Virus genome (UHGV): UHGV-0068637
Length of the DNA stretch: 18,257 nucleotides
Source of the DNA: a virus
Strand: one strand, 5' to 3'
Made by a program: the position numbers and the translations under genes. Positions 38 to 18,155 of this stretch are shown piece after piece. The notes below the pieces were generated by a model. It searched no databases. It was given only the letters and a program-made list of their open reading frames with translations, and was not told the DNA's origin. Each line of letters starts with the position of its first letter. Positions within the stretch are counted from its first letter, which is position 1.

Positions 38-3000
38 TTATTCTTCGCTTCCGGTCAACTGACTGATAAGCGCTTCAAGTTTTGCTATCCGCTCATCCAT
101 TGCAGTAACGTCAGCTTTCAGGCTTGCGTTAACCTCATTCATTGCGGCAACGTTAGCTTTTAAGTTTGCGTTCTCCTCTTCCATTACAGCAACGCTGGCT
201 TTCAGGCTTGCGTTCTCCTCTTCCAGTTCGGTGACGCGATCATCCGTTTCGCGTGCCACCTGGACAAGTAAACCAGTAACCGCCGCATAGTCAACGCTGA
301 GGCACTTCATTTCCTCGCGTAAGATGTTGCCGTCAGTTGTTGGCCCTTGTAGCTCCTTGCCGTAAAGAGTGGTAAACGCTATCGCTTCAGGCAGCGCGTC
401 CATTACTTCCTGTGCAATAACACCAGCGTAAGGAAGGCCGTCATCTTTAAACGTGTAGGTATACCCGTTCATCTTACGGATGGATCCGGTGGCGTCACCT
501 ATGACCTTAATGTTGTCTTTAAGGCTCTGGTCAGAAGTTTGATACAGCGTCTTACATGTAAGATCGCCGTTAAAGTCAAATTTTCTGTTACCTGCTGCAT
601 CTTCCTGAGCATAGAACATGTATTGTTTGCTGTTACCAACCTCAAAAACGCTTTCCCTTCCGCTTTCACCCCATACCCTTACACTCCACGACTGCGCCGA
701 GGTGTCAGAGTTCCTTAAAAGAAGGCGCGGGCCGCTATCGCTGTTTTTAAGGATAACGTCGCCTTTTGCGGTTACGTCACTGACTGTGGTTAGCGTATTA
801 ACAGACACATCCTGATTTCTTCCTGAAACAACAATCTGACTCCATGCCGTCCAATTACCGTTCTCACAATAGCGAACGTATATTTGCTTCGTGTCTGTGC
901 CGACAAGTGTTTGTATGTTTGTGTAGTCTGTATCACTAATCTTGCGAATGGATTCTACACGCAACAAGAAGTTACCGCCTACACCGCTAGGCTTGTTGGC
1001 AATAGTGTTACCACCGCCTGCACTTGCGCATTGATAGTATTTAACAGAACCTTTATCAGATGCCTTAATAACAACGTTGTTAAGATCAATCTCCTGGTTT
1101 TCAATAGGTTGCGGATAGATAGGCCCGTACATACCTGCACTGAATGTGGCAAGGGCGGAAAACGTCGTTTGACCACCTACCGTCACACCGCTATCAAGCA
1201 CTGCTTGCGTGATAACTTTGCTGTTTGTTTTGTGATCGGGATTGTTACCAAAATACAGATCACCGCTGCCATCAATACCGAGGTATTTTTGAACAACGCT
1301 ATCAACCTTGAAGCCAATGGATAGGTTTTCAGAATACCCTGTACGCGTTAAAAGTAACGGTGTATGCTGTTTACCGCTGATTTTTAACGTGTTCTCCGTA
1401 GTTTCCGTGTTGTCGTTGGTGAACTCAGCTGTACGAGATGTTACTTTATATAGGATCTTTGCGCTGTTCGCCTGGATGCTTCCATCATGACGAACAACAA
1501 AATCACCTGTAGCCGTGCCGTTAGTGGTATTTGCCCGAATGCGGACTTCGCCACCCTCTTCGGAATTGGTAGGCGCCCAGATAACACCGCGTTCAGACTG
1601 GTCCTCATTCTGGAACCATAAATGGGCGGTTCCACTTTTTGAACGCAGATAGATCGACGGTGTTCCTTTAAGGATCGTCAGGTCGCCAGTCATGGTGTCA
1701 CCACCTTTTTTAACCTGAGCATCGTTGGTTACGTTGCCAAGTCCAACGTCAGCTTTAGACGGCTTGTATTTGGTTCCGTATAGAGTGTTGATCTGGAAAG
1801 TACCATCTTCAAGCGATCTGTCGTTACCAGAGAAAATCCTGACATTACCTGTGCCGTAGTCGATATTGATCGCAGACCACGTATCGCCGCACCGCGAGAA
1901 TACACCAGAACCGTGGCTGTGAAATGTGGCTGTGCTACCTTTTGGCTTACCGGATCTCCAGAAACACCCACCTTGCGCTTTCAGAGCTTTCAGTAAATCC
2001 TGATCGGTCATGTAACCCGTTGTGTCAGACCACGTTATCCCAGAACCACCAACACCGTAATTGCCTTTAAGCAGGGCATCTTGAAGGCCCAAATCTGCCT
2101 TAGTCGGCTTGTTTTCCTGGTCGTAAATCCTTATTGCAGGGCTTTCGATATATCCCTCTGGGGCGGTTTGTTGTTCGACATAGCCTTCTGGAATGTACAG
2201 TTCAGTCATGCCAGTCTGTGCCAGCACAGCAACCCTTGCGTCCTTAATGAATGCCCGCTGATAGCCCCAGACTTCAAAATATCCATCGCCCGGAACAATG
2301 CCGTAACGCATTTTGTTTTGTGCGTCCAGCCCTGCAGATCCGAGGCGGCGAACACCCAAAAACTTAGTTATGTTTGCACTGGTTATTCCGCCTGCAGTGG
2401 TGTAATTGCGAGCGGAGATCTCGATAAAGTCAATATTGCCGTAAGTCTTGCCGTAGTTACATGCGTTAGTAATCATTAGCGTCAGGTGGCAGTCACTAGC
2501 GCCCGGATCGGTCATTTTTGCGATCTTCACATAACGGGCATAATCAAAGGTATTGATAGGCCATTTACATTGAACCAATGCGTTGTTAGACCTTACTATC
2601 TGATTCAGATATTCTTGCGCCCTGTTCTCTGATGTTTTGGCTTTGGTTTCGCTTGTTTTTGCTGCCGTTTCGCTTGCCTTAGCGTTGGTTTCTGATGTTT
2701 TCGCGGCGGTGGCGGAGTTTGCTGCCGCTGTTTTTGATGCTGCTGCCGCGTTTTTGTCTGATTCTGTTTTTTGAGCGTTGGCAGTTGATTTCGCCGTTTC
2801 TGCGCGAATGTTGGTAAGAAGTTGTTCCATTTGACCATCACCGCCGAACTCATTCCACCACTCTACGGCGGAGGCGATTTCTGTTTCTTTGCTCTGGTAG
2901 TAACGCAGGGTTTCAGCTACGTCCTGAGCAAGCCCATCAACTGAGATCGAATCAGATAGCAGGATGCTAAATTTTGTCCCAGCAGGGATTGCGGGGTTAG

Positions 3001-3184
3001 CTGCTGGCGTCACTGACAGTTCAGTGCCGCTTTTAATTTCCGTGATGGTAAAGATCTGCACAGGATTGCCAACAGCAATGAGCGTGCAACCTACACGAAT
3101 AAGGGAAAGCGGCGCGGAGAAGTTTGTGCCCGTGCCTTTAACAGTGTTGCCATTGATGGCAATTGTTCCAGTTGTGTAAATCAT
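38..3184 (-). CDS. Side tail fibre protein with C-terminal intramolecular chaperone (peptidase S74-like) domain
   Basis: 1048-aa ORF, ATG at 3182-3184 with GGAG upstream. The Ala/Lys/Thr-rich 'AAKTSETNAKASETAAKTSETKAKTSE' region resembles lambda Stf / T4 fibre collar repeats. The C-terminal ~150 aa carries the 'TSDQSLKDNIKVI...GYTYTFKDD...GVIAQEV...LPEA...SVDY' signature typical of self-cleaving chaperone domains (endosialidase / T5 pb1 type), followed by a heptad coiled coil (ENASLKASVAVMEEENANLKANV). Confidence 0.8.
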   Translation of the reverse strand: MIYTTGTIAINGNTVKGTGTNFSAPLSLIRVGCTLIAVGNPVQIFTITEIKSGTELSVTPAANPAIPAGTKFSILLSDSISVDGLAQDVAETLRYYQSKETEIASAVEWWNEFGGDGQMEQLLTNIRAETAKSTANAQKTESDKNAAAASKTAAANSATAAKTSETNAKASETAAKTSETKAKTSENRAQEYLNQIVRSNNALVQCKWPINTFDYARYVKIAKMTDPGASDCHLTLMITNACNYGKTYGNIDFIEISARNYTTAGGITSANITKFLGVRRLGSAGLDAQNKMRYGIVPGDGYFEVWGYQRAFIKDARVAVLAQTGMTELYIPEGYVEQQTAPEGYIESPAIRIYDQENKPTKADLGLQDALLKGNYGVGGSGITWSDTTGYMTDQDLLKALKAQGGCFWRSGKPKGSTATFHSHGSGVFSRCGDTWSAINIDYGTGNVRIFSGNDRSLEDGTFQINTLYGTKYKPSKADVGLGNVTNDAQVKKGGDTMTGDLTILKGTPSIYLRSKSGTAHLWFQNEDQSERGVIWAPTNSEEGGEVRIRANTTNGTATGDFVVRHDGSIQANSAKILYKVTSRTAEFTNDNTETTENTLKISGKQHTPLLLTRTGYSENLSIGFKVDSVVQKYLGIDGSGDLYFGNNPDHKTNSKVITQAVLDSGVTVGGQTTFSALATFSAGMYGPIYPQPIENQEIDLNNVVIKASDKGSVKYYQCASAGGGNTIANKPSGVGGNFLLRVESIRKISDTDYTNIQTLVGTDTKQIYVRYCENGNWTAWSQIVVSGRNQDVSVNTLTTVSDVTAKGDVILKNSDSGPRLLLRNSDTSAQSWSVRVWGESGRESVFEVGNSKQYMFYAQEDAAGNRKFDFNGDLTCKTLYQTSDQSLKDNIKVIGDATGSIRKMNGYTYTFKDDGLPYAGVIAQEVMDALPEAIAFTTLYGKELQGPTTDGNILREEMKCLSVDYAAVTGLLVQVARETDDRVTELEEENASLKASVAVMEEENANLKANVAAMNEVNASLKADVTAMDERIAKLEALISQLTGSEE

Positions 3185-3361: not shown

Positions 3362-3610
3362 ATGAAAAACGTGTTCAAAGTGGTTTTGTTCGCCACGGCT
3401 GTTGCTCTTACTGGTTGCGCTGTTGACAAGGAGGCTGCATTGCATAACCTGCCGAATAGCGGAGTGATTCCACAAGATGTCGTCTATGATGGCAGCGGTC
3501 ATCTTGTCTATGACACTGAAAAACTGCCGTATACTGGTCAATGGTGTCATGAACTTGATCACAATATGCGCCGCATCGGTAGCCCTTCTAACTGTGTAGC
3601 TAACTACTAA
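3362..3610 (+). CDS. Small secreted lipoprotein, Cor-like superinfection-exclusion candidate
   Basis: 82-aa ORF with a signal peptide and lipobox (MKNVFKVVLFATAVALTG|C), a good RBS, and an intrinsic terminator immediately downstream. It is opposite-strand to, and sandwiched between, the J-like gene and the tail fibre, the position where cor-type lipoprotein morons sit in phi80/N15/T1-like phages. The function is inferred from context only. Confidence 0.65.
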   Translation: MKNVFKVVLFATAVALTGCAVDKEAALHNLPNSGVIPQDVVYDGSGHLVYDTEKLPYTGQWCHELDHNMRRIGSPSNCVANY

Positions 3611-3613
3611 AAG

Positions 3614-3644
3614 AAAACCCCGCGCGAAGCGGGGTTGTTTTTTA
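3614..3644. terminator. Bidirectional rho-independent terminator (lipoprotein gene / J gene convergent)
   Basis: Hairpin CCCCGC-GCGAA-GCGGGG followed by TTGTTTTTT on the plus strand, with an A-run on the other side giving a T-tract on the minus strand. Lies between the convergent stops at 3610 (+) and 3642 (-). Confidence 0.75.
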
Positions 3645-6600
3645 TATCCATGTTCCTGAACTTCTTGTTATAAGTATTAAACCTGGTTTTCTTATTGCTG
3701 CATTAGATGTATTGGTAAAGTTTTCCGTCACCTCTACTGTAATTGTTGGGTATGTGAGGCCAGATACACAGTGCACCGCGACAGTTGACATTGCTGGGGT
3801 TGATGCTGGCCTTTCTATATTAATTGTTTTTTGGTGTCCGCTTATATTTATAGTTACATTGATGCGAGAAGATTCACTATATGTATAGTATGACAAATCA
3901 TACGGAATCATAACGTAAACTGTTTTTGATAAACTTGATGAACTTGAATCAAGATAAGTTTTCGAAACGCGCCTGCTGCCATTTCCCCTCATTGACGGAA
4001 ATACATCCTCGTTTATCACTGACATACTTGCTACGTCACCAACAAAACTTGTAGCTTCAACTGCTCCAGTAAATTTACCGCCAGTTGCGTAAACAGTACC
4101 GTTAAACACACCAGCATAAGCGTATACCGTACCCCTTACGGTTACCTGGTTAAATACTGCGTCACCGGCTTTATCTATCGCCCATCCTGTACCGTTTTCC
4201 CAGCTGTAATTAACTGACTGTATTCGATCAGCTATTTTGGCGGAGTTGATAGTTCCGTCCTTAATAAACGCTTCTCTTACATACATTGCGCCATTGGTGA
4301 CATAGAAAGGCGTTATATATGTGCCGTTTGCTTCCGTCATCAACACGAAGCGGTCAACAAGGAAGATACACTGCGACTGGAAGTTAGTACCATCACCAGT
4401 GAGGCCAAGCGACATACCTGTCGCGTACGTCTTGCCGTAGTTGTCGGTTGCCAGCTTGATAGAGTACGACGCATCAACATTGCCTTTGAAGTCGGTCAAT
4501 GCTTTGGATGTCGTTTCTATTGCCGTTTTATTCCCGTTAACGGTCACTGTTAGCTGATCGATTTTCGTTGATAACGCCTCGTCAGCCGTAGCCATCGCCT
4601 GCGACCATTCAGTGATACTTGCGTCTACCAGTTCGAAGGACGCTGAGATCTGGCTGAATTTTTCAGCGTTTGATTCCTCATGCGTAGCTAGTGCCGTTGA
4701 TACCTCAGATACTTTCGAGTTGATTTCACCGGTAAGCGATGCGCTAAGGCCGCTTATTGCGTCTGCGCGTGCTTTTGTTTCGTCGGCGATAGCCTTGTCC
4801 ATCCTGGTAATGTTGCTCGTTACCTTGCTGTCAAGCGTTGAGATTGATGCATTCACACCGCTGATTGCTTCGCCGCGTGCACTGGTTTCGTCCGCAATGG
4901 CTTTATCGAGGCGGTTAATGCTTGCTTCCGTTTTCTTATCAAGATCTGTGATAGATGCGTTCACACCACTAATGGCTTCCGCTGTTGCCTTTTTCTCTTC
5001 CGCCATAACCTTGTCAATGCGGTCGATTTTCGCATTGGCTTCCCTGATCCCTTTCTTGTATTTGGCTGAAAGGGCAACATGCGTGTTGGTCTGAGCGATT
5101 GAGTTATTGATAAGTGCAATCGAGGTATTCTGCATACTTGCTTTGGTCTGGTTGATTTCATCGCTGTTTTTCTCAACGTTGTTTTCAACCGCACCAAGTT
5201 CGGCGCTGATACCGGATATTGCCTGCGCACGGGCGCTTGACTCGTCGGCAATGGCCTGATCCAGGCGCTTGACGCTGGCGTTTGTGTTGTTCTCAAGCGT
5301 TGTTAAGTCTGCTTTGACCTCTGTTATTGCGTCACTTCTTGCCTTCGTTTCGTCTGATATTGCTTTATCAAGGCGGGAAACGCTGGCGTCTGTTTTCTTG
5401 TCAAGGGTGTCGATCGATGCCTTCACGCCACTGATGGCCTGTGCGCGTGCGCTGGCCTCGTCAGCGATTGCCTGGTCGAGTCTGTTCACCTCTGATTCAG
5501 TGTTGCCTTCAAGCGTGCTGATGCTTGCATTAACGCTGCTGATAGCGTCAGTGCGTGCCTTCGTTTCGTCTGCAATCGCTTTATCAAGGCGATTAACGTT
5601 ACTTGTTACCTTGCCGTCAAGTGTGGAGATTGATGCCTTCACACCATTGATGGCTTCGGTTCTCGCGCTCGTTTCGTCGGCAATAGCCTTATCAAGGCGG
5701 CTTATGCTTGAATCGGTTTTCTTATCAAGTGCTGATACTGAGGCGTTCACCCCATTGATAGCTTCTGAGCGTGCGCTTGTTTCGTCTGCAATAGCTTGAT
5801 CCAGACGTTTAACGCTGGCGTCTGTTTTCTTGTCAAGTGCTGAAATGCTTGCGTTAACGTCGCTGACAGCCTGGGTTCGTGCGCTCGATTCATCGGCGAT
5901 TGCCTGGTCCAGACGTTTAACGCTGGCGTCAGTTTTCTTGTCAAGATTGTCTATTGAGGCGTTCACACCGTTAATAGCTTCGGCGCGTGCGCTGGCCTCG
6001 TCAGCCACTGCACGTTCCACGCTAGAAATCTGACCTTTAAGGTTGGAATCCATCGTGTTCATTTCTGCCGTGATGGTTTCCAGTGATTCCGCTGTCGCTT
6101 TTTTCTCTTCAGCGATAACGTTGTCAATACGGTCAATTTCCGCTTTCGTTTCCGTCCTGCCTTTCTTATACTGGGCGGTAAGGGTTACGCGCGTGTTTGT
6201 CTGTGCAAGCGAGTTGTTGATAAGCGCCAATGAAGCGTTTTGCAGGCTTGCTTTTGCCTGTGCCAGTTCGCTGTCAACTTTTTCGCTTGACACTTCTAAT
6301 AAGTCGATTCTGGACTCATGCTGACCAATATCATCGGCGTTCTCTTTAACTTTTTTGTAGAGATCTTCCGTTTCTTTTTTAAGCGTATCGGTGTCAGCTT
6401 TTATTGTTCCTGTTTCCGTGATCAGATTGTCAGTGTCAGTCCTTAAATCTTCAGTTATGTTGTTCAGGTTGTCGGTTTCGGTCCTTAAATCTTCAGTTAC
6501 GCTGGTAAGGTTGTCAGTTGTAGTTTTGAGGCTGTCAGTAGCAGTTTTCAGTTCTTCCGTGACACCATCAATGACATCGGCGCGGTCGCCAAGATCTTTG

Positions 6601-9083
6601 ATGTCACTAATCATATCTTTGAACTGCTCAGACTCCATGACGTCCTTCATCACGTAGTCGCTGATTTCGTCGAAGTTTTCAGTCGGTTTACCTGATGCCT
6701 CAACGAAGTCTGACACACCAAAGGCATTGCGCGTGCGCACATAGACGTAATAGGTGCGGCCCGTGTTCATGCCGCCAAACGTCCACTGATAACCACGTCC
6801 GGTGTATTGTGCCTTAGTGGTCACTGATGCCGGATCTGTGATTTGATTTTCACCAGCGAAATAGAACTCATAACTAGTGTCAGTGGTGAGCGTTGTTCTG
6901 CTAATCGGGTAAACTGTGGCCTGAAATACACCAGGAACCCAGTTGACACCTATCGGGGCCGCTGGCGCACCAATAACCAGGTCCACAATGCTTTCCGCAC
7001 CCTTCATGCCCGTGTCGTTTCTGCCACGGATGCCTAACGAATAGGTTCCCGCATCAATGCCATAAAAATCATGGCTGTAATTAGTGGTTTCGTAGTATTT
7101 AACCACCGCTCCCGCTGTATTGTATACGCGGATCTCAAAGGTAAGACGATGAGTTGTTGTCATCGTTTCCCATGTTGCGCGACATTGAACCGTTTCGGAT
7201 CCAACGTTCATCACTTTCAGGTTTTCAATGTTAGGCACGCGGAAGTGATTGAGCGTGTCGTTGTTGACTTCAAAGACTGCACCTTCATCAACTACAGCCT
7301 GTTTGTGAGGATCGTGCTGTGCCGCCTCTATGGTGTACACGCTGTTGTTTTCAGTTTCCGCAACGCTGACGATTCGACATAACACGGGTTTAGCTGCGTC
7401 TGTTGACACGGCGAACACAGTACCGTTACGAATCCATGCAGGGGCGGATGCAAGGGTAATTTGGTTCACGTTAACACCAGTGATCTGATGTTTTTTAAAC
7501 TTGCCATCACTGTCAAGCAGGCTGATGGTATCACCAGGGGCGATATATTCAGAGTCAACATTATCTACAGTGATAACCCTGCCACTGTTTGCCACGATGC
7601 GACCGCCCAAACGAGCGCCTGCGCGGTTATTGTCGAGTATCTCGATAATATCACCAGGGGTGAAGTGAATCGCGTCACGGGCCATTTTAAACGTGAATTT
7701 TGAGGGTTCGCGTTTTGCTGTTTCTATCAGCCATTTGCCAGCGCGGTAAGCCTGCCCGCGTGACGTGCAACCAAAAGCCTCCAACGTGGTTTCGTTGTAA
7801 CCATCGCGGGCGATCAGTTCATCATCTGCTACGTATTCTTTTGATTGTTCCCAACCGTTTTCCGGGTCAGTCCATGACACAATCACAGCGTTGTAAGATT
7901 CCGCGCGGGCGATACTTGAACGAGTAAATGCGCCATCAACGACGTTTGCATTCGTGATGGTGGCAATTGGATCTTGCGGTGCATCAATCATCACCGTAAG
8001 GCGCTGCCCGTCCCATAACGCGATACCACGGAACATGCCTGCAATGTTGTCCAGCAAGTCGCGGGCGCTCATTTGCTCAGTGATGTAAGCGTTAAGCGTC
8101 ATGCGTGGTTCAAGGCCGCCGTAACCGTCGTTTACCAACTGGTCGCAGTATTGAGAAAGCACATATAATGCGCCATCATCAACGTCAATGTAACCGGCGT
8201 GGCGGGTAAGCCCGAAGCGTTCATTTTTCACCAGATACCGGAAAAGCCATGCAGGGTTGTTGGTGTATGCCTTTTTGAAGCCACCAAGCCATAAACCTGA
8301 GTATGTGCGTGTTTCCGGGTCGTAGTTATCAGGCACGTCAACAATCAGGCCGCGCATGTGATAGGTGCGTGTCGGCGTGTCGGTATACTGATCGTGGTCA
8401 ATTACCGCGCCTGCTACAGCGGTGTGAGGATAAGACAAGTTATCGTCTATTATCTCGCTGTAACTGCTCCACCTGGTGTCATTGCGAAGTAGATCGCTTT
8501 TACTGTCTGGCGTTACGCGACGAACGCGAATATCAAACGGTTTTTCATCCGGCGCTTGGATGATGTGCGCTTCCATATACTCGCCGCTTTGTTTACCAGG
8601 GCCAATGGTAATATCTTTGACTAGTGACCACGTTGTTGACGATGATGGCTTAACATCAACCATCAACACAACAGATGTATTGTATTGATTGCCCTTGTCA
8701 TCTGACTGAACCAGAGAATCAACGCCAAGATTCAGCCTTACGCGGTTAACGTTTGGATCTGAAACGGTCCTGATTATTGGCGTATCGTGAGTCACTTTTG
8801 CGTTAACAATAACGGTTGATTCAATGGCGTTGAAGCCGTTGATTGGTGACTGGTCAGCCGTACCATTACGCCACGCCACGCTAACGCCAGGGACCGATGT
8901 GCCGCCGTTGGCGTCAGTGATTGGGCTGTCATTAAGCATTACGCTGTTTAATGGCGCTTTCTGGTTTACAGGGCCGTAGATTGGGCCTTCGCTGAGAATG
9001 TCCAAAACACGATAAAACTGTTTATGAAACAGGTTATCGTTTAATAATGTTGGTGTTTTGGCTTTGCCGCCGCCGCTACTCAT
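3642..9083 (-). CDS. J: Host specificity / central tail fibre protein (lambda J family) with large coiled-coil repeat insertion
   Basis: 1813-aa ORF with AGGAGA RBS. The N-terminal ~800 aa is collinear with lambda J ('ILSEGPIYGPV', 'NPAWLFRYLV...RFGL', 'LSQYCDQLV.DG.GG.EPRMT.NAY', 'EAFGCTSRGQAYRAGKWLI'), followed by FN3-like segments. The C-terminal ~300 aa is a J-like receptor-binding region. About 650 aa of repeat-rich alpha-helical sequence sits in between. Confidence 0.9.
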   Translation of the reverse strand: MSSGGGKAKTPTLLNDNLFHKQFYRVLDILSEGPIYGPVNQKAPLNSVMLNDSPITDANGGTSVPGVSVAWRNGTADQSPINGFNAIESTVIVNAKVTHDTPIIRTVSDPNVNRVRLNLGVDSLVQSDDKGNQYNTSVVLMVDVKPSSSTTWSLVKDITIGPGKQSGEYMEAHIIQAPDEKPFDIRVRRVTPDSKSDLLRNDTRWSSYSEIIDDNLSYPHTAVAGAVIDHDQYTDTPTRTYHMRGLIVDVPDNYDPETRTYSGLWLGGFKKAYTNNPAWLFRYLVKNERFGLTRHAGYIDVDDGALYVLSQYCDQLVNDGYGGLEPRMTLNAYITEQMSARDLLDNIAGMFRGIALWDGQRLTVMIDAPQDPIATITNANVVDGAFTRSSIARAESYNAVIVSWTDPENGWEQSKEYVADDELIARDGYNETTLEAFGCTSRGQAYRAGKWLIETAKREPSKFTFKMARDAIHFTPGDIIEILDNNRAGARLGGRIVANSGRVITVDNVDSEYIAPGDTISLLDSDGKFKKHQITGVNVNQITLASAPAWIRNGTVFAVSTDAAKPVLCRIVSVAETENNSVYTIEAAQHDPHKQAVVDEGAVFEVNNDTLNHFRVPNIENLKVMNVGSETVQCRATWETMTTTHRLTFEIRVYNTAGAVVKYYETTNYSHDFYGIDAGTYSLGIRGRNDTGMKGAESIVDLVIGAPAAPIGVNWVPGVFQATVYPISRTTLTTDTSYEFYFAGENQITDPASVTTKAQYTGRGYQWTFGGMNTGRTYYVYVRTRNAFGVSDFVEASGKPTENFDEISDYVMKDVMESEQFKDMISDIKDLGDRADVIDGVTEELKTATDSLKTTTDNLTSVTEDLRTETDNLNNITEDLRTDTDNLITETGTIKADTDTLKKETEDLYKKVKENADDIGQHESRIDLLEVSSEKVDSELAQAKASLQNASLALINNSLAQTNTRVTLTAQYKKGRTETKAEIDRIDNVIAEEKKATAESLETITAEMNTMDSNLKGQISSVERAVADEASARAEAINGVNASIDNLDKKTDASVKRLDQAIADESSARTQAVSDVNASISALDKKTDASVKRLDQAIADETSARSEAINGVNASVSALDKKTDSSISRLDKAIADETSARTEAINGVKASISTLDGKVTSNVNRLDKAIADETKARTDAISSVNASISTLEGNTESEVNRLDQAIADEASARAQAISGVKASIDTLDKKTDASVSRLDKAISDETKARSDAITEVKADLTTLENNTNASVKRLDQAIADESSARAQAISGISAELGAVENNVEKNSDEINQTKASMQNTSIALINNSIAQTNTHVALSAKYKKGIREANAKIDRIDKVMAEEKKATAEAISGVNASITDLDKKTEASINRLDKAIADETSARGEAISGVNASISTLDSKVTSNITRMDKAIADETKARADAISGLSASLTGEINSKVSEVSTALATHEESNAEKFSQISASFELVDASITEWSQAMATADEALSTKIDQLTVTVNGNKTAIETTSKALTDFKGNVDASYSIKLATDNYGKTYATGMSLGLTGDGTNFQSQCIFLVDRFVLMTEANGTYITPFYVTNGAMYVREAFIKDGTINSAKIADRIQSVNYSWENGTGWAIDKAGDAVFNQVTVRGTVYAYAGVFNGTVYATGGKFTGAVEATSFVGDVASMSVINEDVFPSMRGNGSRRVSKTYLDSSSSSLSKTVYVMIPYDLSYYTYSESSRINVTINISGHQKTINIERPASTPAMSTVAVHCVSGLTYPTITVEVTENFTNTSNAAIRKPGLILITRSSGTWI
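4730..6040 (-). repeat. In-frame 108-bp tandem repeat array (about 10 copies, 36-aa unit) inside the J-like gene
   Basis: The motif 'tcaag...gcgcgtgcgctggcctcgtcagc' recurs with exact 540-bp (5 x 108) spacing, e.g. 5401 vs 5941 and 5451 vs 5991. The protein unit is 'DKKTDASVKRLDQAIADESSARTQAVSDVNASISAL' and variants. The array is split into two blocks (about 2.5 and about 7.5 copies) by a duplicated ~250-bp spacer segment. Confidence 0.85.
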
Positions 9084-10303: not shown

Positions 10304-11008
10304 TCAACCCACCTTGCTGGATCCTGGGAAACAGGAAATTGGTAACGGATTAGGACGCGGAAAACGCAAACGGCAACCGCTCAGGCGGTGGCTGCATTTA
10401 TCCAGCTTCGGATCACTGGTTGGCTTGTCTTTGTCAGTAGCTACGGGGCCGCCACTGTATCTGCAACCGTCACCGCGATATTGCCACTGGCAAACGTCAG
10501 CGAGGATTGTGCGCCCAGGTATAACCGCTTTATCTGCATCAATTGGCGTTGACAGTTCATATTGCACCTGGTCCGCTGTTTCTTCGCTCATCGCTTCAAC
10601 GACGTAAAAAGATACAGCCTCAATAGATGGATCTGCATCCGGGTTGCCATTGGGGAAGTTGACGGCGTCCAGGTATTTTACTTCCACCTGGCGGCGTGTA
10701 ACCTTCATTCCTCGCAGATCGTTGAAATCGTTATTCATCCCAGTGATTAGGCCGCCAATGTTGGCTACGACCATTTGGGGGCGTGAGTAAACGCCTTCGT
10801 TTTTCATTTCGAAGCCAGTAGCCTCGATTGGGTAGCTGTTGTAAGCCAATCCCTTCCAGATAACCGGGCCGTAATAGCCATTCGCGCCGGAATGGAAGCG
10901 GATAACCTCGCCACCCAGGGGCGTCAGGTCCAGTTCAAATAAGTCAATGACCGCGCCGACTCCGGCATCCACGGAATCAATAATCATTTCTGTAGGTATG
11001 CTGCGCAT
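10304..11008 (-). CDS. L: Minor tail protein L-like
   Basis: 234-aa ORF with AAGGTGA RBS. 'VIDLFELDLTPLGGEV..F', 'GLAYNSYPIEATGFEMKNEG', 'KYLDAVNFPNGNP', 'ILADVCQWQYRGDGCRYSGGPVATD...DKCSHRLSGCRLRF' are collinear with lambda L including the Cys cluster. Confidence 0.85.
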   Translation of the reverse strand: MRSIPTEMIIDSVDAGVGAVIDLFELDLTPLGGEVIRFHSGANGYYGPVIWKGLAYNSYPIEATGFEMKNEGVYSRPQMVVANIGGLITGMNNDFNDLRGMKVTRRQVEVKYLDAVNFPNGNPDADPSIEAVSFYVVEAMSEETADQVQYELSTPIDADKAVIPGRTILADVCQWQYRGDGCRYSGGPVATDKDKPTSDPKLDKCSHRLSGCRLRFPRPNPLPISCFPGSSKVG

Positions 11009-11061
11009 TTTATCACCTTGTCATTTTGTGATCGCCATCACGCTAAATCATACCAAAACGG

Positions 11062-11093
11062 TTGATCGCGTTTTTTACAATATGTATATTGTA
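11062..11093 (+). promoter_or_regulatory. Candidate sigma70 promoter with palindromic operator for cassette A
   Basis: TTGATC (11062-11067), 17-bp spacer, TATATT (11085-11090). The perfect inverted repeat TACAATAT-gt-ATATTGTA (11076-11093) overlaps the -10. Confidence 0.4.
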
Positions 11094-11136
11094 CTCAAAA
11101 GGAAGCATGGTTAACAAAATGGCGCGGAGGTGTGAC

Positions 11137-11292
11137 ATGGCTGATAAGGTGTGGAGGTTGACGGTGTTCCTTAGTGATGGCAGGGAAATGACTGTGGCCC
11201 TGTATAAAGATGAAGGCGAGGCACTTACTGACGCGCTATTACTCGCTGAAGACGAACGCGTTTTGGGGTACAGGATCGAACCTGTCAAATGA
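11137..11292 (+). CDS. Hypothetical small acidic protein (cassette A, ORF1)
   Basis: 51-aa ORF, GGAGG 6 nt upstream of the ATG. First gene after the candidate promoter. No recognisable family. Confidence 0.5.
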   Translation: MADKVWRLTVFLSDGREMTVALYKDEGEALTDALLLAEDERVLGYRIEPVK

Positions 11293-11307
11293 GGGTTATA
11301 ACAAAAA

Positions 11308-11661
11308 ATGGAAAAATACAGATTAGACGTGTGGACTGATAAATACGAATGGGAACGCATGGGGCTATTTGATACATATGAATCAGCGTGTGATGAAGGT
11401 AGTGAATTACTGCGCTGTTGGTCTAATGCTCGTTATTATTATGTTGTTCCAGTACAAGTACCGGATAAGGTGGAAGAGATGAACCCGAAAGATATTAACT
11501 TTAACGTCAATGTTGAATTTGCAGACTCTATGGATCAGGCTTGCCCTGGTGAAATACACGCAAAAGGTTTTCCGGCTGACGATCCAGAAGCAAAACGAGA
11601 ATACGAAAAAGCGGCAAAAGACTTCTGCATAGATAACCTGGGCTGTTTTAATGGCAAATAA
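11308..11661 (+). CDS. Hypothetical acidic Cys-containing protein (cassette A, ORF2)
   Basis: 117-aa ORF with protein-like composition, whereas the antisense frames are Phe/Cys/Ile-rich junk. Lies in an AT-rich region. RBS is weak. Confidence 0.55.
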   Translation: MEKYRLDVWTDKYEWERMGLFDTYESACDEGSELLRCWSNARYYYVVPVQVPDKVEEMNPKDINFNVNVEFADSMDQACPGEIHAKGFPADDPEAKREYEKAAKDFCIDNLGCFNGK

Positions 11662-11676
11662 ATAGTAGGCCAATAT

Positions 11677-11916
11677 ATGAAAATGATTGGTATTATAAAA
11701 CTCGTTGTTACATCTAACAAAAGGGAGGATTTTAATATAAAAGATAGATACCCATTATTCAAAACATCTTCTGGCAATTATTTTACTGTTGACAACTGTT
11801 TAAACTTTGTTCCGCTGACTGTGCTTGATATTTCTGGAGCAAGGGTGAAAGGGTACGGAACTGCTTGCGGTGATGATTTTGTGCCTGATATGCTATTTTT
11901 TGAAACGTGGGAATAA
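11677..11916 (+). CDS. Hypothetical protein (cassette A, ORF3)
   Basis: 79-aa ORF, weak RBS, start could be 11677 or 11683. No recognisable family. Confidence 0.45.
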   Translation: MKMIGIIKLVVTSNKREDFNIKDRYPLFKTSSGNYFTVDNCLNFVPLTVLDISGARVKGYGTACGDDFVPDMLFFETWE

Positions 11917-11921
11917 AAATC

Positions 11922-12188
11922 ATGGGGCGGCGCAATCACGGTGATTATGTGTACACGTTGAAACAGGCCGCCCGCCTCATCGGTTATCATGAGCACGAAT
12001 TTATTAATTTGCTGATTGAGCGCGGGATACTTTACCAGGTCTGTTTAACGCTGTACCCGAAAGCTAAATACCTACAGGAAAAGTTATTCATCATCATGAC
12101 GGATGAAAACCAGGTCAATCACTCATTCGTCACTGATAAAGGTGTCAACTATCTGCGCGATAACTTACAGGGCGGCAATTATGGATAA
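11922..12188 (+). CDS. Putative small helix-turn-helix DNA-binding protein (cassette A, ORF4)
   Basis: About 89 aa from the ATG at 11922 (the ORF track uses GTG at 11907). The N-terminal 'YTLKQAARLIGYHEHEFINLLIERGIL' has the pattern of an HTH recognition unit (excisionase / AlpA / MerR-like). Confidence 0.5.
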   Translation: MGRRNHGDYVYTLKQAARLIGYHEHEFINLLIERGILYQVCLTLYPKAKYLQEKLFIIMTDENQVNHSFVTDKGVNYLRDNLQGGNYG

Positions 12189-12252
12189 GGTTATCGAAAA
12201 TGTTTTGGTAGTGGCTGGCGCAATTGCCATCGTTTATGCCTTTATGAACTAA
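12181..12252 (+). CDS. Possible 23-aa hydrophobic peptide (cassette A, ORF5)
   Basis: MDKVIENVLVVAGAIAIVYAFMN. Overlaps the stop of ORF4. Very short and hand-called, so it may not be translated. Confidence 0.3.
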   Translation: MDKVIENVLVVAGAIAIVYAFMN

Positions 12253-12263
12253 TGGGGTGAATC

Positions 12264-12401
12264 ATGAAAATCGAAGTTTTAGCACTGATTGTAATGGGCT
12301 TGATTGTCTTCGGTGTTCACGCTGCTGGTTGGGACTGGGCGGCAATAGCAAACAACATGGCGCACGCTCACCCAATGAGTTTGCTGTATATTCACTACTA
12401 A
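12264..12401 (+). CDS. Small single-pass membrane peptide (cassette A, ORF6)
   Basis: 45-aa ORF, GGGGTGA RBS 4 nt upstream. The N-terminus 'IEVLALIVMGLIVFGV' is hydrophobic. A terminator follows directly. Confidence 0.45.
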   Translation: MKIEVLALIVMGLIVFGVHAAGWDWAAIANNMAHAHPMSLLYIHY

Positions 12402-12403
12402 CA

Positions 12404-12440
12404 AGAAAAACCCCGCGCGAAGCGGGGTTGTTATTATACG
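12404..12440. terminator. Bidirectional rho-independent terminator (near-identical copy of the 3614-3644 hairpin)
   Basis: CCCCGCGCGAAGCGGGGTTGTT is identical to 3618-3639. There are A/T runs on both sides, between the convergent stops at 12401 (+) and 12434 (-). Confidence 0.7.
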
Positions 12441-12631
12441 CCATCAACCAAAAATAAAACCTCCTTGCCTTCCCTGGATCTGCATCCCACATACCCGTCA
12501 CCAACATCATGAAGATACCAGGTATCGCCATTGTCAGCCTTTACAGTAAGGTCGTTGATCTCATAGTCGTCAAACAATGTAAAAGCGTCAGTTTTGTCAA
12601 CTACACAAGTCCCGTACATAACAACCTCCAT
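12434..12631 (-). CDS. Hypothetical 65-aa protein translationally coupled to M
   Basis: Its ATG (12629-12631) overlaps the TAA of the M-like gene (TAATG arrangement). Same strand as the tail genes, followed by a terminator. No recognisable family. Confidence 0.45.
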   Translation of the reverse strand: MEVVMYGTCVVDKTDAFTLFDDYEINDLTVKADNGDTWYLHDVGDGYVGCRSREGKEVLFLVDGV

Positions 12632-12984
12632 TAGCCAACAACTTGTTCAAACGTTGCGTTTAGCGTGTACACAGGCCCGTCCTTAGTCATACTCCAGCTA
12701 CGGCAAACAAAAAGCCTTTGCACGCCATCCATAGACGGCGACCAGTAAAAAGCCTCGACAGCGCCGCGCGCCCTCAAGAATGCTTCTGCCTGGATCGCCA
12801 CGTTTCCACCATCACCGCATCCTGCGCTACTGCCTTTAAAAACCAGGGTGTATTTATCAAGTAATGTGTTAATCCCTTTCGCCTGGCGCTGTTCATATCC
12901 ATCACCAAGTTTAATGACTGACACATTTGGTTCCCTGGTCACGCTGTAGCTTCTTTGTGGCGTCCATTTGAAAACTTCAGGCAT
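12631..12984 (-). CDS. M: Minor tail protein M-like
   Basis: 117-aa ORF with GGGGGA RBS. 'KLGDGYEQRQAKGIN', 'FYWSPSMDG', and the C-terminal 'TLNATFEQVVG' match lambda M ('RFGDGYSQRAPAGLN', 'FLWTPPYE', 'EFSAEFEQVVN'). Confidence 0.85.
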   Translation of the reverse strand: MPEVFKWTPQRSYSVTREPNVSVIKLGDGYEQRQAKGINTLLDKYTLVFKGSSAGCGDGGNVAIQAEAFLRARGAVEAFYWSPSMDGVQRLFVCRSWSMTKDGPVYTLNATFEQVVG

Positions 12985-13884: not shown

Positions 13885-13918
13885 AACCCCGGCATTGTAC
13901 CGGGGTTTTGTTTATTTG
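13885..13918. terminator. Bidirectional rho-independent terminator (cassette B / H gene convergent)
   Basis: Hairpin AACCCCGG-CATTGTA-CCGGGGTT followed by TTTTGTTTATTT. On the minus strand a T-rich tract follows the stem. Directly abuts the H stop at 13912-13914. Confidence 0.75.
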
Positions 13919-16251
13919 CGGCGAGGTTGCAACATTCCGCCAGGTCGTTGCGATTCCCTTGCCATCATTTTCATTGCTACGCGTTCCATTGTCTGTTCAA
14001 GCCTGCGACCGTCTTCGTCGCTAAATCCGTTTGTGGTCTGTACGGTGATGTTAACAGGCATATTGATGCCGCCACCATTGAAGAGATCGCGGCCAGGAAT
14101 AACCCTGCCATTTTCCCCAGGAATCATATACTGACGCCCGTTGCTCGTCTGGAATAACTCAGGAATCCCGTGTTCCCCTACGCGATACAGACTTCCACCA
14201 TTAACAGAACCACCATTATAACGTCCGCCGCCAAAAATTGACGTTGCCAGCGACATGATCGCAGAAAGTGCCGCAGCACCAGCCGCCGCCCAGCTACCAC
14301 CAGTTGACGCAGCCGTTGCCGCAGCCGCCGGGGCCGCCGCCGCAGCAATCTGACCTTGCGCCGCCACCGCGCCAGCCGTTGTACTTGCCTGGGTAGCCTT
14401 GCTTTGCGTTTCCATCATCAACTGATCTGCTATCCAGTTGGCGGCAATTTCTGATAGTTTGTTGCCAACGGTGTTAAGTATGCTACTTCCCAGGTTAGCA
14501 AAAACCTCGCTTAGTGATTGAGTACCGTTCAACAGGCCGGTAAGCGCATTACCCATGCCACCTTTTAGGCCACTGACACAAGCGCCGATCAGGCCGTTTG
14601 TGTCGCTCTGTGCCTGCCATTGTTCCCATTTCAGATCTCGGATCTGTTGCTCGTATTCCAATTGCGCCTGTCTCTGTTGCGCCTCTGTAGCGCCCAGGTC
14701 CAATAGCATTTGTTTTCTTACAGCCCATTCATTTTGCGCCTGCTTGATTGGGTCAATTTCTCCCTTAAGCTGGTCCATCGGGCTAACTATGTGGTCCCAT
14801 TTGTCGCGTAGCTCATCAACAGGGATCTGAGCTAATTCGTCTTTCAGTTCCTTGCCTATTCCTTTTTGCGCGGCCTTGTACTCAAGGAGGGTTATTTTGC
14901 CCTGGGCGAATGCAGCATCAATGGCCTTGCCGTTCTCCAGCGCTTTACGCATGGCGGCGGCGTCCTTGTTGTACTGGTCGGACACTTTTATACCTTCATC
15001 ACCAAGCCGATCAGCTTCGGATTTCTTTTGTTTTTTAGGTTTTTTCGGCTTACCAACTGGCTGATCGAATCCTGTGATCTTGCCATCGTCAGCCTCACCC
15101 TGTTTCTCCATGAACTCATCATATGCGGCGGTTGCGTTTTTAATGTCGTTTGCAAACGTCATTACTTTGCCAACGGTAGGGCCAAATTTCTTCTCGTTGT
15201 TGCTGTTTAGCTCTTCTTTGCGTTTGTCTACGATCTCCTTCATCCATTTGTAGCCATCCATTAGCGCCTTGATTGGCGTCACCATCCTGATGATTTCTTC
15301 CGCCACCTCGCCAGCTTTAACAGCAACATCGTCAAATATGTCGATGAACTCGCTACCAGCGGTTTTCAGTGTATTGAAACAGGTTGCGGCGAATTTTGCG
15401 CCTTTACCCAATCCCTCAACGCCACCAGTGATTAAGTCTATTGCTGTAACAACGCCGTCAGATATGCCGAAAAGATTATCAAGCTCTTCGACAACGCCCA
15501 TCATCTCAACTTTAAGCTCGTTGAAGGCTATGCCTGTTGTGCGCGGCAATTGTGCGAACTTCTCGTTTGTTTCCTGCGTGGAGGCCTGGATCGCGTTGAG
15601 CATCCTTTCAGCCGTGATCTTACCGTCCAGCATTTCAGCGCGGAACTGACCCATAGATAACCCCATTTGGCGGGCCATTTCCTGTACGATTGTTGGGGTA
15701 TTGTCGCGTATTGAGTTAAATTCTTCCGCCTGCAACACGCCAGCATCAATAGCCTGGCGGAACTGGCGCATGGAGTTAGATAACTGTTCCGCAGACACGC
15801 CGCCCAGACTACCAAGTTTTTGTAGCGTGCTAACCAGGTTGAGCACCTGGCCTTCCGTAGCGGATGTATTTTTTAGCGATATAGCAAGCCCTTGCCACAG
15901 GTCGCCAGTATCCTTGAGGCTTTGGCCTGTTTCTTTTGATATATCTTTCAGTCTGTTGAAAACACGTTCCGTGGCCTCCGCTTCACCTGTGAGCAGTTTG
16001 ATTTTTACGCGAAGCATTTTTGCTTGCTCCGCCATGTCAATAAACTGGCGCACAGCCTCCGCAGCAAGTAATAGATGGATAACCCTGGACAGTGCTTTGA
16101 TTGAAGTCTTAAGCGTGTTTACCTGGCGGTCAGCGCGTTTTGCGCCACGCTCGATGCTGTCAAATGCCTGGTCTGCCTGTCGTTGAGCAACGAGAAGTTG
16201 ACCAGTTTTTGCATCAACTTCGTAATAGATTGTACCTAAACTGGTTGCCAT
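13912..16251 (-). CDS. H: Tail length tape-measure protein (H-like)
   Basis: 779-aa ORF with GAGGT RBS. The N-terminal two-thirds is alpha-helical and rich in charged residues. There is a Gly/Ala-rich hydrophobic stretch near the C-terminus (AAQGQIAAAAAPAAAATAAS...SIFGGG) and a terminal 'GGSLYRVGEHGIPELF' region like lambda H. It sits directly upstream of M. Confidence 0.85.
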   Translation of the reverse strand: MATSLGTIYYEVDAKTGQLLVAQRQADQAFDSIERGAKRADRQVNTLKTSIKALSRVIHLLLAAEAVRQFIDMAEQAKMLRVKIKLLTGEAEATERVFNRLKDISKETGQSLKDTGDLWQGLAISLKNTSATEGQVLNLVSTLQKLGSLGGVSAEQLSNSMRQFRQAIDAGVLQAEEFNSIRDNTPTIVQEMARQMGLSMGQFRAEMLDGKITAERMLNAIQASTQETNEKFAQLPRTTGIAFNELKVEMMGVVEELDNLFGISDGVVTAIDLITGGVEGLGKGAKFAATCFNTLKTAGSEFIDIFDDVAVKAGEVAEEIIRMVTPIKALMDGYKWMKEIVDKRKEELNSNNEKKFGPTVGKVMTFANDIKNATAAYDEFMEKQGEADDGKITGFDQPVGKPKKPKKQKKSEADRLGDEGIKVSDQYNKDAAAMRKALENGKAIDAAFAQGKITLLEYKAAQKGIGKELKDELAQIPVDELRDKWDHIVSPMDQLKGEIDPIKQAQNEWAVRKQMLLDLGATEAQQRQAQLEYEQQIRDLKWEQWQAQSDTNGLIGACVSGLKGGMGNALTGLLNGTQSLSEVFANLGSSILNTVGNKLSEIAANWIADQLMMETQSKATQASTTAGAVAAQGQIAAAAAPAAAATAASTGGSWAAAGAAALSAIMSLATSIFGGGRYNGGSVNGGSLYRVGEHGIPELFQTSNGRQYMIPGENGRVIPGRDLFNGGGINMPVNITVQTTNGFSDEDGRRLEQTMERVAMKMMARESQRPGGMLQPRRK

Positions 16252-17678: not shown

Positions 17679-18155
17679 TTACGCCGCCGGAACGTCAGCT
17701 ACTGTAACCTTGCCAGCGCTTTCGCATTCAATGGACCAGGTGGACACATCGTCATGCGGATCTTCTTCTTTAAAGGAAGTGCAAAGAAACGGGCCTTCAG
17801 TCACATCAAGCGGAGAAACAATTTTTAACCATACGATTGGCTGAGAACCAGTTACCTCACCCGGGTTAATAACGTGGCGTTTCAACTCTTTCTGATTGTG
17901 AAGCGCTTCTGTGCGGGATACGCCGTCACCTGAGAAGGAAACGGACTTGTAAGTTACCAGTGATTCTTTGGTGTAGTCTGCTGATTTGTCAGCGGTGGCG
18001 TCTGCGGTTTCCCATTCTACGGAAAGAGATTTACCACGCATCATGCCTAACGCTTTATATGCTTCGTCATTAGGTTTCGCATTAGGGCAAGCGATAGCGT
18101 AAAATACGGCAACGTCGCGGCCTAAGAACGAACCTTTATCACAAGTCTGAGACAT
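17679..18155 (-). CDS. Putative major tail (tube) protein
   Basis: 158-aa ORF with a strong RBS (AAGAGGT). It is immediately upstream of the chaperone and tape-measure genes and is followed by its own terminator, typical for a highly expressed tube subunit. The size fits small siphovirus tube proteins. Assignment is by context and composition, not a recognised motif. Confidence 0.5.
   Translation of the reverse strand: MSQTCDKGSFLGRDVAVFYAIACPNAKPNDEAYKALGMMRGKSLSVEWETADATADKSADYTKESLVTYKSVSFSGDGVSRTEALHNQKELKRHVINPGEVTGSQPIVWLKIVSPLDVTEGPFLCTSFKEEDPHDDVSTWSIECESAGKVTVADVPAA

Follow-up and report, generated by a model that had tools for sequence, protein, structure and literature searches.

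A mosaic side tail fibre of an mEpimmI-group coliphage very probably ends in a Peptidase_S74 intramolecular chaperone domain

We analyzed an 18,257-nucleotide stretch of viral DNA from the genome UHGV-0068637 (referred to below, at its full length, as the window), with emphasis on the C-terminus of the side tail fibre encoded by the last gene of its tail module. The C-terminal 165 residues of this 1048-residue protein (S884-E1048) very probably constitute a Peptidase_S74, or intramolecular chaperone (IMC), domain, capping a mosaic side fibre of the mEpimmI group. The identity of the domain, its conserved Ser/Lys dyad, its predicted fold, and the mosaic ancestry of the fibre are established by the evidence laid out below. 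The fibre gene and the elements of its C-terminal domain are the following, with residue numbers referring to the fibre protein:

38-3184, minus strand: gene of the side tail fibre, 1048 residues, with the stop codon at 38-40 (list of open reading frames and translation; matches to PHROG tail-fibre families).
383-535, minus strand: Peptidase_S74 core, residues 884-934 (PF13884; a loop and, in the AlphaFold2 (AF2) model, helix 898-902, strands 908-911 and 918-921, and helix 924-930).
293-382, minus strand: long beta-hairpin, a predicted 'tentacle', residues 935-964 (AF2 strands 935-948 and 954-964; predicted local distance difference test score (pLDDT) above 80).
56-289, minus strand: C-terminal alpha-helix, residues 966-1043, a predicted trimeric coiled coil (AF2 pLDDT above 90; heptads; coiled-coil matches in Pfam and the PDB).
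92-225, minus strand: 42-nucleotide (14-residue, two-heptad) tandem repeat, 3.2 copies, inside the coiled coil (TRF).
533-535, minus strand: codon of Ser884, the predicted nucleophile (PF13884 position 1; conservation; T5 precedent).
518-520, minus strand: codon of Lys889, the predicted general base at Ser+5 (conservation; spacing as in T5 Ser1264/Lys1269 and MYRF S578/K583).

A preliminary description of this DNA had read the C-terminus as a self-cleaving chaperone domain and had suggested a profile comparison with Peptidase_S74. That comparison is positive and above the curated Pfam threshold: PF13884 (Peptidase_S74, 'Chaperone of endosialidase') covers residues 884-934 from profile position 1, with E=1.8e-11 and 44.6 bits against a gathering cutoff of 22 bits. 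T5 pb1, used as a positive control, is matched over 1264-1323 (35.9 bits), likewise from position 1, and because this position falls on T5 Ser1264 as well as on S884, the latter is the equivalent of the T5 catalytic Ser. PF13884 is also present in the fibres of mEp021, mEp554, and Ayreon. When a profile of the domain was compared with solved structures, it matched phage S16 gp37 (6F45) over the whole domain with E=7.4e-19 and the ICA domain of MyRF (7DC3) with E=1.5e-7; a clear match needed the profile, as a phmmer search of the PDB with the C-terminus as a single sequence yielded a weak match to 6F45 (E=0.003) amid coiled-coil noise. The family is large, with 2911 representative clusters matching at E<=1e-3, and the kind of domain is already known and already annotated in relatives, so that the fibre adds one more member: the RefSeq name of the nearest relative, WP_237998197.1, is 'pyocin knob domain-containing S74 family peptidase', and many database homologues are called 'peptidase S74'. 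An NCBIfam search of the fibre protein gave no match, and the RefSeq name of the relatives must therefore stem from another rule.

Several weak coiled-coil Pfam matches overlap the C-terminus and would suit a different explanation, namely that the motifs resemble those of Peptidase_S74 by chance and that the protein ends in a coiled-coil tail of other descent. The chance of this being right is negligible. The domain scores at double the curated Pfam cutoff, its catalytic residues are conserved in the family, and an unrelated tail is refuted by PF13884, the profile matches to 6F45 and 7DC3, and the fold matches to 7DC3 and 3GW6 described below. The defining features of Peptidase_S74 that were examined, comprising the profile match, the Ser/Lys dyad, the fold, and a C-terminal position after a beta-structured fibre domain, are all found here, and the identification of a self-cleaving-type chaperone domain is backed by Pfam, the T5 control, Ser/Lys conservation, the profile matches to solved structures, and the fold match.

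Every motif quoted in support of the domain is present in the translated open reading frame, where a motif search placed them as follows:

500-538, minus strand: TSDQSLKDNIKVI, residues 883-895.
Residues 907-915, minus strand: GYTYTFKDD.
Residues 921-927, minus strand: GVIAQEV.
Residues 931-934, minus strand: LPEA.
Residues 963-966, minus strand: SVDY.

The span of 38-520 given earlier for the domain stops at position 520, where the K889 codon (518-520) begins, and so misses the S884 codon and the scissile bond by 13-18 nucleotides; the corrected span is 41-535.

The residues expected to catalyze self-cleavage are highly conserved. S884, D885, and K889 are nearly invariant in 33 close homologues and invariant in an alignment of 57 sequences with distant members among them, and in a broader set of 142 sequences, made up of the query and 141 representatives of 50%-identity clusters, the Ser is kept in 133/142, the Asp in 137/142, and the Lys in 138/142. 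The Ser of the 'SLK' motif, S887, which had been proposed as catalytic, varies, the position being D, R, E, or N in most of the 142 sequences; the predicted nucleophile is instead S884 of 'TSD'. In T5 pb1, the chain is cut between Thr1263 and Ser1264, the Ser leaves with the chaperone, and mutation of Ser1264 to Ala stops autoproteolysis of the fibre; K1F is likewise cut before the Ser (PMC4690869). For the phi29 appendage, by comparison, the model places the cut after the Ser, which thereby stays on the mature protein as its final residue (PMC4690869). Alignment of TLYQT/SDQSLKDNI in the fibre with GTINT/SDARLKNDV in T5, where the slash marks the cut, places the predicted scissile bond at T883-S884, to within one residue, by the T5 and K1F precedent. 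A cut between S884 and D885, as first suggested, is the arrangement modelled for phi29 and lies one residue downstream of the site given by the closest precedents. The predicted products are a mature fibre of 883 residues (95.2 kDa) and a released fragment of 165 residues (17.8 kDa).

Structure prediction agrees with the profile searches. The AF2 monomer of residues 876-1048 has a pLDDT of 93.3 and a predicted template modelling score (pTM) of 0.70, and a Foldseek search of the PDB with this model returned MyRF ICA 7DC3 (E=1.6e-5, prob 1.00, template modelling (TM) score 0.59 on the target) and the K1F intramolecular chaperone 3GW6 (E=3.3e-4, prob 1.00, plus weaker 3GW6 chains). These were the only structures with E<0.01, the next match having E=0.68. 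The order of the elements, a loop, an alpha/beta body, a hairpin, and a helix, agrees with that published for the T5 IMC (PMC4690869).

Several observations weigh against this interpretation. A longer monomer model (residues 690-1048) has a mean pLDDT of 65.7, with the S74 core below 50, and its Foldseek search matched T4 gp34 for the pre-IMC part only, with no S74 match; this model was replaced by the final one, which comprises the domain only and was built on a more diverse alignment. The hhalign comparison with the T5 IMC is weak (E=0.0016, probability 16%), with a consistent motif alignment. The precedents place the cut before the Ser (T5 and K1F) or after it (phi29), which leaves an uncertainty of one residue in the predicted scissile bond. 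In T5, an arginine of the neighbouring subunit (Arg1250) acts as a folding sensor that completes the oxyanion hole (PMC4690869), and no such arginine was located here, where the model is of a monomer only; R843 of 'WGxSxR', nearly invariant among the 33 close homologues, is a speculative candidate for this role. Peptide data on the processing of the mEp021 fibre were sought in PMC11893012 and its supplements, and none were found there.

In K1F, T5 pb1, and MYRF, the domain trimerizes via a C-terminal helix or zipper and aids folding of the preceding beta-structure; the Ser meets the Lys only in the folded trimer, and an arginine of an adjacent chain stabilizes the oxyanion (T5, K1F: PMC4690869). 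By homology to these three proteins, trimerization, cleavage at the predicted bond, and unmasking of the receptor site would be expected of the fibre too. The long C-terminal helix would form a trimeric coiled coil and bring three nascent chains into register, and the beta-hairpin 'tentacles' would grip the beta-structured tip (residues ~800-883) and template its trimeric fold. Correct folding would place Ser884 beside Lys889 of the same chain, the T883-S884 bond would be cut, and the chaperone trimer of ~17.8 kDa chains would fall away, leaving the 883-residue (~95 kDa) mature fibre, whose freed distal end could contact the cell surface. A separate Tfa-type assembly chaperone would not be needed.

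The preliminary description had also noted a terminal coiled coil, and this is borne out by clean heptads, with V/N/I and L/M at core positions, and by the single helix predicted for residues 966-1043 with pLDDT above 90. It is unusually long: the tail after the VDY..GLLVQV anchor has 85 residues following V964, compared with at most 64 in the 95 close relatives that carry the anchor. Such a length, the coiled-coil proteins picked up by profile searches, among them the P22 tail needle gp26 (4LIN, E=0.0018), and the fact that cleavage is here a prediction by homology could together speak for an S74-like domain that is kept uncleaved, with the 78-residue helix as a permanent trimeric coiled-coil 'needle' forming a structural or membrane-probing tip. 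We regard this as quite improbable, since Ser884, Asp885, and Lys889 are intact at family-invariant positions and the dyad-bearing members cited here that have been studied experimentally (T5 pb1, K1F, and MYRF) self-cleave. Furthermore, the uncleaved form of the T5 fibre cannot compete for receptor binding (PMC4690869), and on this precedent unmasking of the distal end after the predicted cleavage is a reasonable expectation for the fibre studied here.

The extra length of the coiled coil resides in its tandem repeat, which comprises three two-heptad units, EEENASLKASVAVM, EEENANLKANVAAM, and NEVNASLKADVTAM, at residues 988-1001, 1002-1015, and 1016-1029. A single unit is found in the nearest prophage, in mEp554 and Ayreon, and in all 95 close relatives with the anchor, so that two extra units, or 28 residues, have been added in frame to the coiled coil relative to the nearest relatives; as 42 nucleotides encode two heptads, a change in copy number keeps the coiled-coil register. 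The array at first seemed unique among 103 close relatives, and this was ruled out by a representative cluster, P0115 (a 1136-residue fibre), which carries the same three units; the three-unit allele is thus rare but not unique. Pairwise identity among the three 42-nucleotide units is 32-35/42, and given this divergence the allele is not recent. If the domain is discarded after folding, as predicted, the length of the coiled coil is probably weakly constrained. One might conjecture instead that the array is a copy-number-variable 'trimerisation zipper', in which a change from one unit to three tunes the timing or efficiency of folding and self-cleavage on a foreign passenger, here the T5 pb1-type shaft, and that the conserved IMC serves as a recombination anchor for fibre-module swaps between virulent T5-like and temperate phages; we consider this idea unlikely.

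The remainder of the fibre is assembled from parts of different affinity. Upstream of the IMC domain, the modules are:

2756-3184, minus strand: N-terminal virion-attachment module of the mEpimmI type, residues 1-143 (84% identity to the N-terminus of the mEp554 fibre, residues 1-~160).
2627-2701, minus strand: Ala/Lys/Thr-rich 'KTSET(N/K)A' heptad repeats, residues 162-186 (motif positions; three KTSE repeats, SETNA at residues 164-168).
788-2755, minus strand: T5 pb1-like shaft, residues 144-799 (57% identity to pb1 142-804; 59% to the Stf of phage Ayreon; phrog_24369, E=3.6e-278).
536-787, minus strand: distal beta-structured domain, residues 800-883, the predicted C-terminal tip of the mature fibre (T4 gp34-like).

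Consistent with the earlier suggestion of a mosaic, the fibre combines an mEpimmI-type N-terminus, a T5 pb1-like shaft, and a C-terminus as in mEp554 and Ayreon, to whose fibre C-termini residues 810-1048 are 49-54% identical. Over residues 4-207, the protein matches the N-terminal domain of depolymerases from Klebsiella phages (7VYV/7VZ3/7LZJ, E~1e-35), which suggests that the N-terminus of this coliphage fibre and Klebsiella phage capsule depolymerases have an adaptor module in common. The segment at residues ~825-880 is homologous to the repeated domain of the T4 proximal long tail fibre gp34 (4UXE/5NXF), with E=1.8e-4 for the single sequence and 6e-7 for the profile, and the pre-IMC domain matches 4UXE in Foldseek (E=8.5e-3). 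The 'pyocin knob' of the RefSeq label of the relatives (residues ~690-790) was not confirmed by sequence comparison with the PDB, and the model of this region is poor. As a separate observation, mEpimmI side fibres span 449-1048 residues and have the N-terminal module and the S74 C-terminus in common, with the middle swapped wholesale (mEp021 L006 278-1627; mEp554 L005 152-2677).

The N-terminal repeats, which include a 21-nucleotide tandem repeat at 2633-2692 within the KTSE region, had been likened to the shaft of lambda Stf. The likeness holds for 12/14 residues of the low-complexity repeat AAKTSETNAxxSET and for nothing else: KTSE-type repeats are also common to T5 pb1, which is the homologue of the shaft, and lambda Stf was ruled out as the source of the shaft, the similarity being confined to this 14-residue stretch. 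Lambda Stf (orf-401/orf-314) is likewise a side fibre encoded after J, and its stretch in common with the fibre reads 'AAKTSETNA(K/R)xSET', but lambda has a separate Tfa chaperone, not an S74 domain. The Pfam search detected no PF08400 ('Prophage tail fibre N-terminal') in this fibre, whereas it is present in the Stf of Ayreon. With neither PF08400 nor a downstream Tfa gene, the fibre is not of the lambda Stf type.

T5 pb1 resembles the fibre in its shaft, its C-terminal S74 IMC, the Thr-Ser-Asp-x-x-Leu-Lys motif, and the spacing of Ser and Lys(+5). BLASTP, however, found nothing significant outside pb1 142-804, and thus no similarity to residues 1-140 (collar attachment) or 805-1396, and the bullet-shaped polymannose-binding domain of pb1 (970-1263) has no counterpart by BLASTP in this fibre. 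The T5 C-terminal helix has 24 residues compared with ~78 here, and the phage is temperate rather than a Tequintavirus. On its sequence, then, the fibre is a pb1 homologue in the shaft only and not a T5-type fibre overall. The label 'T5-type' did not hold for the IMC either: the closest type is that of phage S16 gp37, and the hhalign figures given above led us to reject the T5 IMC as the closest one, the domain being not specifically T5-like.

Among the other characterized systems, the K1F endosialidase (3GW6), the founding member of Peptidase_S74, resembles the domain in Pfam family and predicted fold, and K1F has the Ser-Lys chemistry and trimerization-dependent self-release; it differs in sequence (~15% identity), in its longer tentacles, and in its passenger, a sialidase tailspike with a triple beta-helix stalk rather than a fibre. 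MYRF/MrfA ICA (7DC3) is the best structural match and has the S/K dyad at +5, and MYRF needs its C-terminal leucine zipper for cleavage; these proteins, however, are eukaryotic membrane-bound transcription factors in which the ICA domain is internal and not C-terminal. The S16 gp37 tip (6F45) has the SSDRRIKKDIK motif, the GYTY and AGxIAQEV blocks, and a matched terminal helix, and T4-type fibre repeats precede it; in S16, a T4-like myovirus, the separate adhesin gp38 sits on the tip after processing, and there is no gene for such a protein here.

Of the phages closest to the one studied here, the nearest relative is the mEpimmI prophage of E. coli 2-331 (WP_237998197.1), with 89.7% nucleotide identity over 99% of the fibre gene. 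The fibres of this prophage, mEp554 (WWQ70723.1), mEp021 (AXN54201.1), and Ayreon (ATP61598.1) share with the present one the position after J as the last gene, the N-terminal module, and the S74 C-terminus. The T5-like shaft is common to the present fibre, WP_237998197.1, and Ayreon, whereas the fibres of mEp021 (449 residues) and mEp554 (841 residues) are shorter and lack it. Relative to WP_237998197.1, the fibre has the 28 extra coiled-coil residues and two diverged segments. Identity along the chain, in a single comparison of the fibre with this nearest relative, is:

Residues 1-540: 94-97%.
Residues 541-600: 52%.
Residues 601-689: 87%.
Residues 690-799 (the part labelled 'pyocin knob' in RefSeq): 59%.
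Residues 800-883 (tip): 81%.
Residues 884-987 (IMC core): 98%.

The preliminary description had placed the receptor-binding tip directly before the IMC domain, which may be so; the most divergent passenger segments (541-600 and 690-799), however, are not the extreme tip. This pattern bears on whether the mature tip itself meets the host, as the domain could be cleaved while the tip docks a separate adhesin, in the way gp38 sits on processed gp37 in S16 and T2. In keeping with such docking, the S16 gp37 tip is the solved structure nearest in sequence, and the pre-IMC domain is T4-fibre-like, short (~84 residues), and less variable among close relatives than residues 690-799. The genes, however, make a docked adhesin very improbable: no gene follows the fibre, only 37 nucleotides are left in the window and host genes come directly next in the nearest prophage, and no gp38-like open reading frame was seen between J and the fibre gene, where there is only an opposite-strand frame of 82 residues without a Pfam match.

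The IMC-capped fibre is encoded by the last gene of a siphovirus tail module whose genes are all on the minus strand, with K- and I-like proteins encoded between the L-like gene and J. The neighbouring features are:

17679-18155, minus strand: major tail protein.
13912-16251, minus strand: tape measure protein.
12631-12984, minus strand: M-like tail protein.
10304-11008, minus strand: L-like tail protein.
3642-9083, minus strand: J protein, 1813 residues.
3616-3636: bidirectional terminator-like hairpin, directly after the J stop codon.
3362-3610, plus strand: conserved open reading frame of 82 residues, between J and the fibre gene and on the strand opposite to both.

The 82-residue frame is hypothetical in RefSeq (WP_086611538.1) and in mEp554. 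Given the hairpin and this opposite-strand frame between J and the fibre gene, transcription of the latter may be separate from that of the other tail-operon genes. For mEp021, the annotation gives a lipoprotein and a 'virion structural protein' between J and the fibre region. In the nearest prophage, the phage genes end with the fibre gene, directly after which come the host genes ynaN and zntB, and no Tfa-type chaperone gene is present; the window itself ends 37 nucleotides past the fibre gene.

The DNA of the window and the N-terminus of the fibre match the mEp phages (mEp554, mEp013, mEp010, mEp021, and others), and the DNA also matches prophages of E. coli strains 2-331, WCHEC025970, 127, 190, and MIN12, five strains listed as hosts of mEpimmI prophages in PMC11893012. 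On these matches, the phage is assigned to the temperate coliphages of the mEpimmI (mEp021-like) group. PMC11893012 takes J as the receptor-binding protein, and the side fibre is outside its analysis. The J protein has 1813 residues here compared with 1132 in lambda, and ~700 of these, from the end of the second immunoglobulin-like domain (residue 811) to Phage_Tail_Tip (residues 1521-1658), have no strong Pfam domain; the interval 811-1521 yields weak coiled-coil-like matches only. Variable repeats at positions 950-1475 of mEpimmI J proteins have been described (PMC11893012). An insert of ~1.6 kb at 11043-12631, between the M-like and L-like genes, holds small open reading frames on both strands, one of which (11907-12188, plus strand) matches the antirepressor KilAC/ANT C-terminal domain (Pfam E=4.3e-7); the remaining ones have no Pfam match. 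The insert looks like an accessory (moron) cassette within the tail operon, and in the mEpimmI phages genes of exclusion lipoproteins are located in the structural cluster (PMC11893012).

Little of this would surprise a phage structural biologist, and the main value of the finding lies in annotation and engineering; the rare 28-residue expansion of the coiled coil is the unusual detail of an otherwise ordinary feature. For annotation, the mature fibre is predicted to end at T883, which sets the part that can contact the host, and the S74 domain would explain why a Tfa-type chaperone gene is missing beside the fibre gene. For expression of the fibre or swapping of its receptor-binding part, the C-terminal 165 residues should be kept for folding, even though they are predicted to be lost from the product. 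For the recently described mEpimmI group, in which the published analysis considers only J as a receptor-binding protein, the side fibres can be read as S74-capped mosaics, and the fibre of a temperate mEpimmI phage shares 57% identity in its shaft with that of the virulent phage T5.

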